64,000 nucleotides of DNA from an uncultured delta proteobacterium (GCA_963791285.1 CAWBSC010000023.1:259818-323817), one strand, 5' to 3'; shown: positions 18,838 to 23,960, numbered from the stretch's first letter. A program made the numbers and translations. Notes: a model not told the origin generated them from the sequence alone.

Positions 18838-19794
18838 TCACGCGGGCGGCTCGGCTGCAAACTCCTTGAAATACGCGATGGTGCGGCGCAGACCCTCCTC
18901 GAGCTCGATCGTCGGCTGCCAGCCGAGCTCGCGCTGCGCCAACGCGATGTACGGTCGCCGCTGGGTCGGGTCGTCGGCCGGCAGCGGGTTGAAGACGATC
19001 CGGGAACGCGAACCGGTCAGCCGGATGACGCGCTCGGCCAGCTCCAGGATGGTGAACTCGTTCGGGTTGCCCAGGTTGACCGGCCCGACGAAGCCGCCGG
19101 CGGTGTTCATCATGCGGAAGATGCCCTCGATCAGGTCGTCGACGTAGCAGAACGAGCGCGTCTGCTGCCCGTCGCCGAACACGGTGATGTCCTCGGCCGG
19201 TCAGGGCCTGCATGATGAAGTTGCTGACCACGCGCCCGTCGTTGGGGTGCATGCGCGGGCCGTAGGTGTTGAAGATGCGCACCACCCGGATGTTCAGCCG
19301 TGCTGGCGGTGGTAGTCGAAGAAGAGCGTCTCGGCGCAGCGCTTGCCCTCGTCGTAGCAGGTGCGCAGGCCGATGCGGTTGACGTTGCCCCAGTAGTCCT
19401 CGGTCTGGGGGTGCACCGCGGGGTCGCCGTAGACCTCGGAGGTCGAGGCCTGCAGGATGCGCGCGCGCACGCGCTTGGCCAGCCCCAGCATGTTGATGGC
19501 GCCGTGGACGTTCATCTTCGTGGTCTGCACCGGGTCGTTCTGGTAGTGGATCGGCGAGGCGGGGCAGGCGAGGTTGTAGATCTCGTCCACCTCCAGGTAG
19601 AGCGGGAAGGTGATGTCGTGGCGGATGACCTCGAAATCGGGGCTGCCGATGAGGTGGGCGATGTTGCGCTTGCTGCCGGTGTAGAAGTTGTCGCAGCAGA
19701 TGACGTCGCAGCCCTCCTGCAGCAGGCGCTCGCAGAGAAGGGAGCCCAGGAACCCGGCGCCGCCCGTGACCAGGACGCGTTTGCGAAGGTGCAT
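18838..19794 (-). pseudogene. UDP-glucuronate decarboxylase (UDP-xylose synthase), interrupted by a -1/+1 frameshift pair
   Basis: [18 protein letters not shown]...DYHRQHG (ORF 19294..19914) continues as [34 protein letters not shown] in another frame (ORF 18752..19846). It then returns to the original frame as [15 protein letters not shown] (ORF 18838..19182). Confidence 0.8.
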
Positions 19795-19915
19795 GCCCCA
19801 TCCTTTCGTTGACGGTCGATCTGCCGGCTCTATAGCACGGCGCCACCCGCCAGACAATGGCGCGAGGGGGTGGGCTCGGGGGTGAGGATCAAAAGCAAAA
19901 TTCAAGAGCAACAAC

Positions 19916-20019
19916 GGGTTCAGGGTTCAGACAAAGTCACAACCGGTTTGAAATCCTTTTTCATTCCTGAACACTGAACCCTTTATCCCGAAGACTGGCT
20001 GAACCCCGAACCCTGAACC
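19916..20019. repeat. GGGTTCAG-word inverted repeats
   Basis: GGGTTCAGGGTTCAG (19916-19930) against CTGAACACTGAACCC (19967-19981), 14/15 complementary, and CTGAACCCCGAACCCTGAACC (19999-20019). The word is related to the G/T-rich tracts elsewhere. Confidence 0.7.
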
Positions 20020-20026
20020 TGCTCCC

Positions 20027-21193
20027 TCAGTATTCCATCGCTCCTGGACCCTTCTCGTCCTGCGGCCACCGGACGGCCGGTAGCCGCCGCGCAGCCCGCC
20101 CGCGGAAAACACGATCTGCCACAGCTGGTTCGACCGGGCGCGGAAGCTGCCGGCGCTGGCGAGCAGGTAATACCGCCACATCCGGAAGAAGCGCTCGCCG
20201 TAGCGCTCCGGAGCCGCTCCCAGCCCGCGGCGAAGTTGGCGTTCCACGCCATGAGCGTCGGTCGTAGTGCGGCCGAAGCTGTGCCAGTCCTCGATGACGA
20301 ACAGCCCCTCGGCGGCGGCTGCCAGCTGGCGCATCGAGGGGAGCATGCAGTTCGGGAAGATGTACTTGTCCGCACCACGGGTCCACCGAGCGCGCCGGAG
20401 ATGTTGCTCGCCGATGGTGTGCAGCAGGAACAGGCCGTCCGGGCCCAGGCAGCGCGTGCCGACCTGCATGTAGCGCCGGTAGTTCTTCACCCCGACGTGC
20501 TCGATCATCCCGATGGAGACGATGCGGTCGAAGCTGCCGTCGACGTCGCGGTAGTCCTGCAGGCGGATCTCGACCGGCAGGCCGCGGCAGAGCTCCCGCG
20601 CGAGCTCGCCTGCTCCTTGGAAACGGTGATGCCCACCACCGCGGCGCCGTGCCGTCTCGGCCGCGTGCCGCGCGAACCCGCCCCACCCGCAGCCGATGTC
20701 GAGGACCCGCATTCCGGGCTTCTCGAGCCCGATCTTGCGGCAGATCAGCTCGAGCTTGTCCGCCTGGGCCTCGTCGAGGTCGTCGCCCGCTTCCAGTAGC
20801 CGCAGCTGTAGTTCATCGCCTGTCGAGCATCAGCGCGGTACAGGTCGTTGCCCAGGTCGTAGTGGCGGCGGCCGATGTTCGAAGGCCCGCGCGGGCCTCT
20901 GGGGGTTCACAGAGGCGGTCGAGCCACAGCAGACCGACAGCAGGCGGCGGGCAAGACCTTCTGCGGGGCGCGGTCGAGCCGGCGCAGGACCCTTCGACAA
21001 ACTCGTCCAGGGCGTCGCAGTCCCACCACCCGTCCATGTAGGCTTCGCCGAGCGCCAGCGAGCCGCCCGCCAGGACGCGGCCGAAGAAGCGCGCGTCGCT
21101 GACCCGCAGGTCCCAGGGCCGCTCCCCGTCGATGGCCACATCGGCCCGATCCAGCAGCGCCTGCAACAACCGCCGGCTGCGTTCGACCTTCAT
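20027..21193 (-). pseudogene. cfa: cyclopropane-fatty-acyl-phospholipid synthase, riddled with frameshifts
   Basis: Conserved CFA-synthase peptides are scattered over all three minus frames: MKVERS...GEAYMDGWWDCDALDEFV, HYDLGNDLYRA, MNYSCGYWK, MRVLDIGCGWGGFARHAAE, SVDPW, KYIFPNCMLPS, LMAWNANFAAGWERL and ERFFRMWRYYLLASAGSFRARSNQLWQIVFS. The 3-prime end is uncertain (stop at 20027 or 19927). Confidence 0.8.
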
Positions 21194-21394: not shown

Positions 21395-21517
21395 AGAACC
21401 AAGTGTCGGGCCGTCAGCCAAGGCGCGCGGCCTTTTGGAAAGCGCAGCATGCCGGAGGCATGTGAGCATTTACAAGAGGCCGCGCAACGCCGGATCACGG
21501 CCCGAGACGCCGGTTCT
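21395..21517 (+). repeat. palindromic MITE-like repeat, subfamily A
   Basis: Near-identical to 11055-11167. Terminal inverted repeats are AGAACCAAGTGTCGGGCCGT and ACGGCCCGAGACGCCGGTTCT. It ends 10 nt before the MBL gene's ATG. Confidence 0.85.
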
Positions 21518-21526
21518 TGCGAGGTG

Positions 21527-22452
21527 CCCATGCCGGTCTCCGAGATCCTGCCCGACTTTTATTTCTTCGAACGCGGCTACCTGAACGGGAACCACTTCGC
21601 CTGGCGCGGCGAGCGTCCGGTGCTCGTCGACACGGCCTACCTGCCCCACGTCGACACCACCCTGGAACTCCTCGCCGGCATCGGGATCGACCCGGCCCGG
21701 ACCGCCACGATCCTCACCACCCACTGCCACTGCGACCACGTCGGCGGTCACCGGCGCATCCAGGCGCTGTCCGGCTGCGGGGTGGCGCTGCACCCCCTCG
21801 GCCGGCACTTCATCGAGACCGGCGACGACTGGTCGACCTGGTGGCGCTACTACGACCAGCCGGCCGAGCCCTTCGAGTGCACCCACAGCCTCGAGGACGG
21901 GGAGGTCGTGGACGTCGGCCCCCACCGCTTCACGGTGCTGCACACGCCCGGGCACTCCGCGGACGGCCTCGTGCTCTACTGCGCGGCGGAACGGGTCCTG
22001 CTCTCCTCCGACGCCCTCTGGGAGCGGGACATCCCGGTGATGACCGTGCGGGTCGAGGGCAGCCGAACGCTCTTCGACGCCTTGCGCTCGCTCGAGCGCA
22101 TCGAGGCGCTGGACGTCCGGCGGGTCTACCCGGGGCACGGGCCCGGGTTCGATGACCTGCCGACTGCAGTCGCACGCAGCCGGGAGCGCCTGCAGCGCTA
22201 CCTGCGCCGCCCGCAGGACCTCGGCCGCGACCAGATCAAGCGCATCGTCGTCTACACGCTCCTCATGCACCCCGGGATCCCCGTGGACGGGTTTTTCGAC
22301 CGCCTGATGGGGACGTTCTGGTTCCCCGAAACCTGCGATCTCTTCTTCCGCGGCGATTACCGCCGTCACTGCGACGACACCCTGGCCGGGCTGCTGGAGC
22401 GCGGCATCCTGACCCGCGCCGACGGCGGCTCTTTACAGTCGTCCCTCAATAA
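21527..22452 (+). CDS. MBL-fold metallo-hydrolase (C-terminus probably frameshifted)
   Basis: HCHCDHVGGH metal-binding motif, with TPGHSADG and YPGHG. The ORF track runs straight on into the next gene. A TAA at 22450-22452 becomes in-frame if one indel near 22425-22435 is assumed. Confidence 0.6.
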
Positions 22453-22615
22453 GGCCCGCCTCCAGCCGCACTCGAAGGCCGCAGGCCGCGGCGCTGGCAA
22501 ATCCCCCCGGGTTCGTGTAAGTGGTATAGTCATCGGACACTCCGATCGTCCCGCCCGCGCGGGGCGACGGCCGCAGAAAGGAAATTTCAGGAAATCGACC
22601 GCGATACCCGGTGCG

Positions 22616-23960
22616 GTGTTCCACCGCGTTCTGGACGACCAGCTGCCCGTGGCAAAACGCTCCGCGGGCGTCTGGATCGAAACCGAAGACGGGCGGCGCT
22701 ACCTCGACGCGAGCGGCGGTGCGGTGGTCGTCAACGTCGGCCACGGGCGGGCGGAAATCGCCCGGGCCGTGGGGGACCAGCTCCAGACCCTTTCCTACGT
22801 GCACCCCACCATGTTCACCTCGACCGCCCTCGAGGAGCTGGCCGCGGCGCTGGCCGCGCACGCGCCGGCGGGGCTGGACCGGTTCTACTTCATGTCCTCC
22901 GGCTCGGAGGCGGTCGAGACCGCCATCAAGCTCGCCCGGCAGATCCAGACCGCCCGCGGCGACGCGGACCGGCAGGTGCTCGTCTCGCGCTGGAAGTCCT
23001 ACCACGGGCTGACCATGGGGGCGCTCGCCGCCGCGGGGCGCACCTCCTTCCGCCTGCCGTTCTACCCCATGCTGCGCGACGCCGTGCACATCCCGCCCCC
23101 GTACTGCCTGCGCTGCTCCTACGGCCTGAAGTATCCCGGGTGCGGCCTGCGATGCGCGCTCGCGCTGGACGAGACCATCCAGAACCTCGGCCCGGCAGTG
23201 GTCTCAGCCTTCATCGGCGAGACGGTCGGCGGGGCCAGCATCGCCGTCTCGCCCGCCCCCGGAGGGGTACTGGCCGCTCGTGCGCGAGATCTGCGACCGC
23301 CACGGCGTGCTCCTGATCCTGGACGAGGTGATGTGCGGCATGGGCCGCACCGGCCGGTGGTTCGCCTGTGAACACTACGGGGTCGTGCCCGACATCCTGG
23401 TGCTCGGCAAGGGGCTTTCGGGCGGGACGCTGGCGCTCTCGGGGGTGGCGACCACGACGGGCCACGTGGACACGGTGCAGCGCGCCGCGGGGAACTTCGC
23501 GCACGGCGGCACCTTCAGCCACAACTGCGTCAGCTGCGCCGCCGGCCTCGCGGCCGTGCGCATCCTCGAGCAGGAGGACCTCGTGGCGCGCTCCCGCGAG
23601 CTCGGCGAGCGCCTCGGGCGCTGCCTGCGGGACGCGCTGTCGGGTTCGCCCCACGTGGGCGACATCCGCGGCATCGGCATGATGTGGGGGGTCGAATTCG
23701 TCCAGGACCGCAACACCCTGCAGCCCTTCCCGCGCAGCCGCAAGGTGACCGAAACCCTCTGGCAGAACCTGTTCGACCGCGGGGTCATCCTCTACAAGAG
23801 CGTCGGCATGGCCGGGACCGACGGCGACGGGCTCATCGTCGCACCGCCCTTCGTGATCACCGCGGAGGAGATCGACCTGGTGGTCGAACGCCTCAAGCAA
23901 GCGATCGTTCAGGTCCTGGGGCTTGAACCCGCGAACGGCCCCGCCCGCCCGGGGCATTGA
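22616..23960 (+). pseudogene. class III PLP aminotransferase, split by a single frameshift near 23256-23266
   Basis: VFHRVL...DASGGAVVVNVGHG...SSGSEAVETAIKLAR...AFIGETVGGAS is in the frame of ORF 21449..23371. REICDRHGVLLILDEVMCGMGRTG...HGGTFSHN is in ORF 23280..23960. Removing one G from cccggagggg restores PEGYWPLVREIC. The GTG start at 22616 is tentative. Confidence 0.75.

Follow-up and report, generated by a model that had tools for sequence, protein, structure and literature searches.

Four adjacent genes of an uncultured delta proteobacterium, lying between positions 18838 and 23960 of a 64,000-nt stretch of its genome assembly (GCA_963791285.1, CAWBSC010000023.1:259818-323817; hereafter the window), cannot be read in single frames, which raises the question of whether the small insertions and deletions that break them are mutations of the organism or errors of the deposited sequence. 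The genes encode a UDP-glucuronate decarboxylase-like SDR (UXS), a cyclopropane-fatty-acyl-phospholipid synthase (cfa), an MBL-fold hydrolase and an aminotransferase. An earlier note on this DNA had offered two explanations for the indels: consensus errors localised to low-coverage or strain-variable accessory DNA, or very recent, indel-driven gene inactivation. The comparisons presented here lead us to conclude, with high confidence, that the indels arose as consensus errors when a metagenome was assembled from long-read-type data, and are not the organism's own mutations. The source assembly is a 4.10-Mb metagenome-assembled genome (MAG) of a Desulfobacterales bacterium, in 26 contigs, the largest of 702 kb, with a marker completeness of only 77.7%.

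Reading frames of the four genes

We compared the locus with a close relative. A protein search with the MBL hydrolase led to a 90%-identity cluster of 307-aa proteins and so to six JGI metagenome contigs (L121-L126, from six samples), whose nucleotide identity to the window is 91-97%. The window and the six contigs have a common gene order: udg, a 150-aa gene, UXS, cfa, the MBL hydrolase, the aminotransferase, csp, a 255-aa gene, an RNase-H-like gene and DAO. All ten genes are unbroken in the relatives, where the four genes in question are intact single open reading frames (ORFs) of 318 aa (UXS; in L121, L122 and L124), 384 aa (cfa; in four complete copies), 307 aa (MBL hydrolase) and 443 aa (aminotransferase). 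Plain tblastn ran through short out-of-frame stretches and through the shadow frames of high-GC DNA, and was unsuitable alone. Frameshifts were counted with a purpose-written protein-to-DNA aligner that allows for +1 and -1 shifts explicitly and that required 0 shifts in 45 of 47 control comparisons with genes from other genomes. Base-level positions of the events come from a multiple nucleotide alignment of the window against the JGI relatives.

The breaks were upheld: none of the four genes is in a single frame, and they are broken at or within ~10 nt of the places given in the earlier note. UXS (18838..19794, minus strand; assigned from ORFs, nucleotide alignment and NCBIfam SDR matches) had been said to leave its frame at about 19297 and to return at about 19197; compared with the relatives it lacks a G at 19299 and carries an extra T at 19193, so that ~34-35 codons are out of frame. 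The gene is read as three pieces: 19294-19914 and 18838-19182 are in frame -2, with 34 codons of frame -1 between them, and the N-terminal frame meets a TGA at 19296-19294 directly after the shift. In NCBIfam both pieces match SDR sugar epimerase/dehydratase families, all below the cut-off because they are fragments.

In cfa (20041..21193, minus strand, 3' end approximate; NCBIfam PRK11705 matches the pieces), where at least 10 frame switches had been claimed, 10-14 frameshifts are required against each of six orthologs (five from genus members and one from a closer relative), at consistent positions. Nucleotide alignment resolves them into ~17 single-base indels within 20202-20992 and a few of 2-4 nt. 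The restored cfa frame contains 0 stops.

The MBL-fold (glyoxalase II-like) hydrolase (21530..22452, plus strand; assigned from ORFs and alignment to relatives that are uniformly 307 aa long) has indeed lost its stop near 22430, as proposed. An A is missing at 22426, which puts the last 8 codons and the stop (22450-22452) in another frame, where the displaced C-terminus RLFTVVPQ-stop corresponds to the ...DGRLFTVVPP ends of the relatives. The ORF continues without a stop into the N-terminal half of the aminotransferase, as far as 23371, giving a reading frame of 640 aa. NCBIfam returned only sub-threshold, class-B3-like matches for the hydrolase (59 bits against a cut-off of 240).

The aminotransferase (class III, aspartate aminotransferase family; 22595..23960, plus strand) is recognizable from NCBIfam PRK07483, which matches both halves, and from a tblastn frame change between them, near 23250-23266. 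It is split by one extra base, as the earlier note had it; the base is, however, not a G in cccggagggg, which is identical in the relatives, but a C at 23250 (GTCT[C]GCCC) that moves the frame from +2 to +3. A second event, a missing G at 23917 (G5 to G4) that bypasses the native stop at 23924-23926, had been overlooked.

Frame switches across the assembly

The indels are part of a genome-wide, clustered process. We trained a codon-usage hidden Markov model (HMM) on the genome's own long ORFs and counted same-strand frame switches with no stop within 30 nt. The model found 1,726 such switches in the MAG, or 0.42 per kb, as compared with 33 (0.08 per kb) in 400 kb of a 100%-complete congener. 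In an ortholog-guided alignment using 265 proteins of that congener, filtered by third-position GC, at least one shift was required in 29 of the 89 genes of a strict set. The HMM events are strongly clustered, with a variance-to-mean ratio of 6.0 in 5-kb intervals; 380 of the 810 intervals have no events (~100 expected from a Poisson distribution) and 102 have at least 6 (16 expected). Altogether 61% of the events fall into 109 clusters, which have a median span of 1.7 kb and make up 5.5% of the genome. The process is also sensitive to assembly geometry: 5-kb intervals at contig ends have a mean of 3.8 events against 1.9 in the interior (Mann-Whitney p = 0.02), and at least 6 events are found in 27% of the terminal and 11% of the interior intervals.

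These counts do not bear out the idea that the damage is specific to this locus or to accessory genes. As many as 20% of the genome's 5-kb intervals have an HMM count equal to or above that of the present region, and the process is indifferent to gene essentiality. The sole secA (G000:C2:16591-18826) lies in at least 8 frame pieces, none of which reaches the family cut-off, and the sole rpoB (G000:C23:528952-533005) is split once between two frames, near C23:531130. The sole argG locus is in 6 pieces, and a relative's argininosuccinate synthase aligns to it through 11-13 shifts; the N-terminus of carB needs 12. Both argG and carB are covered by one 6-kb cluster, G000:C24:126190-132300, with 30 HMM events. 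Elsewhere, shifts were found in aldehyde:ferredoxin oxidoreductase (AOR; 17), CODH (4) and PEPCK (3), and one of four ftsH paralogs is fragmented; rpoC and ileS are unbroken. The broken genes have 76-90% amino-acid identity to their orthologs, equal to or above that of unbroken genes. A shattered secA together with a broken rpoB is impossible in a free-living bacterium of the sulfate-reducer type, and the shifts must therefore belong to the assembly.

A divergent patch was also sought at the argG-carB cluster, where the best ArgG relatives retrieved were only 86% identical. A short-read metagenome contig (L178, Ga0316621_10003335) matches G000:C24:120676-125749 with 94.9% identity over 5 kb and 3 gap openings. 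It ends at C24:125749, ~440 nt short of where the cluster's first frameshifted gene starts (near C24:126190), which may be a coincidence or may mark a strain-variable spot that is hard to assemble.

Surroundings and signs of the indels

Many of the shifts had been thought to lie in short G or C runs. As located by alignment, however, 18 of the 21 events fall where a base stands singly or twice in a row, and a run of at least 4 is involved only once. Genome-wide, the run lengths at clustered events are distributed as at random coding positions, and isolated events show a slight excess of runs of at least 4 (27% against 12%). On the run lengths of both the located and the genome-wide events, an association with homopolymers is rejected.

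Nor did the proposal hold that the indels often form compensating -1/+1 pairs. The signs of neighbouring events in cfa alternate in 6 of 15 adjacent pairs, when ~7.5 would be expected by chance, and the pair in UXS leaves a TGA inside the gene.

Divergence of cfa

A sliding-window comparison with the close relative revealed a hyper-divergent patch that takes in the UXS-cfa spacer and most of cfa (19800..21150). Substitutions reach 13-22% within it, against a background of 1-6%, and the sequence on either side is 95-98% identical. UXS, the MBL hydrolase and the aminotransferase have 3-4% substitutions, like their unbroken neighbours. In cfa itself we counted 174 substitutions and ~19 indels, contrary to the impression that indels outnumber substitutions at this locus.

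The substitutions in cfa do not look random. Codon differences away from the shift points are 26 synonymous and 53 nonsynonymous; nevertheless the restored protein is 64.5% and 60.4% identical to two outgroup orthologs, as compared with 69.3% and 58.3% for the relative's own cfa, and 50% of the changed residues are also used by other orthologs. In 500 simulation runs with random substitution at the observed cfa rate, the gene acquired a mean of 3.8 stops (P(none) = 0.026), outgroup identities fell to 52% and 44% (maxima 58% and 50%), and shared residues to 8.6% (maximum 17%). The simulation thus rejects both random error and neutral decay as the origin of the substitutions. Neutral decay since the split from the relative is rejected independently, because the cfa patch has diverged further than the third positions of the flanking genes (5-9%). 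One oddity is that the third-position divergence of the patch, ~20%, is low for its amino-acid change; other cfa pairs give 36-51%. We also looked for a signature of decay, that is, random substitutions and premature stops, in all four genes and did not find it.

Since the substitutions have been filtered by selection, the patch is either a real divergent cfa allele (a recombination import or strain variant) or a chimera made by the assembler. As it stands, cfa looks like a strain-variable allele that has diverged strongly and on which ~17 indels are superimposed without random damage.

Neighbouring genes and a repeat

The immediate neighbours are intact, as had been noted. Alignment to the relative showed no frame-breaking indels in udg, the 150-aa lipoprotein-like gene, csp, orf255, the RNase-H-like gene or DAO. 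One continuous open frame makes up nfeD; its length differences from the relative are confined to 3 nt at 17535 and to the last ~13 codons, where the two sequences align poorly. Further frame switches without stops, found in the window by the HMM, lie at 37692-38305, directly downstream of a rhodanese-rubrerythrin gene (36887-37690), and at 62401-62901, in an ExeA-like gene upstream of an OmpA/TSP3 lipoprotein gene (61746-62213).

The gene content around cfa varies within the genus. In one member (G009; L002/L016, G009:C34) UXS lies ~430 bp from the MBL-aminotransferase pair, with no cfa between, and another (G014; L011, G014:C259) retains the UXS-cfa adjacency. Most other members have their cfa homologs (66-70% nucleotide identity) elsewhere.

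A search of the region against Rfam matched no family. The spacer between cfa and the MBL hydrolase contains a 119-nt palindromic interspersed repeat (21397-21515), of which ~100 full-length copies with 75-95% identity are found on both strands across the 26 contigs, and many copies in other genus members. It folds as one long hairpin (-71.6 kcal/mol, z = -7.8) and matches no Rfam family; it looks like a REP- or MITE-like element.

Discussion

The observation that the four genes are broken is real, and the phenomenon behind it is ordinary, a known class of frameshift errors in long-read MAGs. The distribution of the events suggests how they may have arisen. Most of the MAG is clean; ~5% of it lies in kb-scale stretches that carry ~1-2% single-base indels at non-homopolymer positions, and there are isolated single-base errors outside these dense stretches. 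Both kinds are present at this locus: cfa holds a dense stretch, and five errors, divided among UXS, the MBL hydrolase and the aminotransferase, are isolated. In the dense stretches the consensus was probably built on a handful of reads or on a minority haplotype, leaving too little consistent support for polishing. Thin or mixed support would be expected at strain-variable sites, and the cfa cluster coincides exactly with the divergent allele; contig ends, too, are enriched in events.

Several observations weigh against this explanation. The link to homopolymers, which is the classic signature of Nanopore errors, is missing. Other clusters in the genome are dominated by insertions (47 to 7), and the signs here are balanced. 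Furthermore, the nearest comparison assembly is ~95-97% identical, and none that is at least 99% identical and carries corrected bases was found. Association with homopolymers is a typical feature of a single platform and not a defining mark of this class of artefact; its absence, together with the excess of insertions elsewhere, points to no particular platform.

It is possible, though we consider it the less probable form of the artefact, that the assembler joined into this contig a 1.3-kb cfa stretch belonging to a different strain or species of the same community. This would be a special case of consensus error, in which the divergence and the errors both come from a minority, thinly covered haplotype. 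The divergent patch and the indel cluster share their boundaries, at ~19.8-21.15 kb, with the normal 95-98% identity resuming on both sides, and the substitutions within are real, selection-filtered variation. A natural recombinant allele would, however, look alike on sequence alone, and the other three genes have their isolated indels in normally diverged sequence, so that divergence is not required for errors to occur.

Genuine and very recent inactivation, in which the four genes, or at least cfa, became pseudogenes through a burst of small indels, is very unlikely. In its favour, the indels are present in the deposited sequence; cfa is dispensable in the genus, one congener having UXS beside the MBL hydrolase without it, and is the most diverged gene of the neighbourhood. 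Yet this divergence (13-22%) is more than neutral decay since the split can yield when flanking third positions differ by 5-9%, and the substitutions are stop-free and filtered by selection. The sole copies of secA, rpoB and argG are broken in the same manner, and such shifts occur ~1,700 times, a burden that a free-living cell could not carry; events are also enriched at contig ends. Moreover, 17 indels without random substitutions are the reverse of known pseudogene spectra. Of the two explanations originally offered, then, consensus error at strain-variable DNA stands, and recent inactivation gives way in the face of broken essential genes and the lack of decay.

We give still less credence to the reading that the kb-scale clusters are real, the product of a local mutational process that makes indels only (such as error-prone repair synthesis across 1-6 kb patches) in this Desulfobacterales population; the MAG consensus would then represent cells with such patches, a freshly inactivated cfa allele among them. 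Recoding, in which real shifts are bypassed by programmed ribosomal frameshifting or transcriptional slippage, can practically be dismissed: no support was found for it and it is listed only on account of the conserved peptide segments, while the shift sites are heterogeneous in context and share no slippery heptamer or homopolymer (18 of 21 in runs of at most 2), genes carry 12-17 shifts in both directions, the first UXS shift is directly followed by a stop, and close relatives encode the same proteins in a single frame.

If the indels are consensus errors, as we propose, some 1,500 of the frameshifts in this species-representative MAG are spurious, and ~5% of its length lies in dense error patches. 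Any pseudogene, split gene or lost pathway called from it is suspect, and so is any apparent gene fusion, of which the 640-aa MBL-aminotransferase ORF is an example. The broken argG and carB, likewise, could be misread as auxotrophy for arginine or pyrimidines. The biology of the locus is that of a conserved UXS-cfa-MBL-aminotransferase neighbourhood, whose one real feature is the apparently divergent, strain-variable cfa allele.

Among known systems, recently host-restricted bacteria such as Mycobacterium leprae and Sodalis are rich in pseudogenes, with many genes frameshifted yet recognizable. In such pseudogenes the frameshifts are accompanied by stops, by larger deletions and by the random substitutions of relaxed selection, and the essential genes of these bacteria are intact; in contrast, the genes described here have no stops or random substitutions, and secA, rpoB and argG are affected. 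The cfa patch resembles allelic replacements or recombination imports, being 13-22% diverged between flanks of 95-98% identity and filtered by selection. This likeness concerns cfa alone and not the other three genes, and would fit a natural recombinant as well as an assembler chimera. The indels differ from classic residual Nanopore errors, which are tied to homopolymers, in that no such tie exists and 61% of them lie in kb-scale clusters; clustering on this scale at non-homopolymer positions points to locally thin or mixed read support rather than to a systematic bias in base calling. The indels do match the frameshift errors known from long-read MAGs. Long-read bins of low coverage, below ~40-fold, still contain indels that break up gene calls (Sereika et al. 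2022, PMC9262707), and gene-fragmenting indels in long-read assemblies are also treated in the proovframe preprint (10.1101/2021.08.23.457338). As in those assemblies, large contigs here go together with depressed marker completeness, about a third of the genes are broken by 1-nt indels while their protein segments are conserved across frames, and essential genes are affected whose orthologs are intact.

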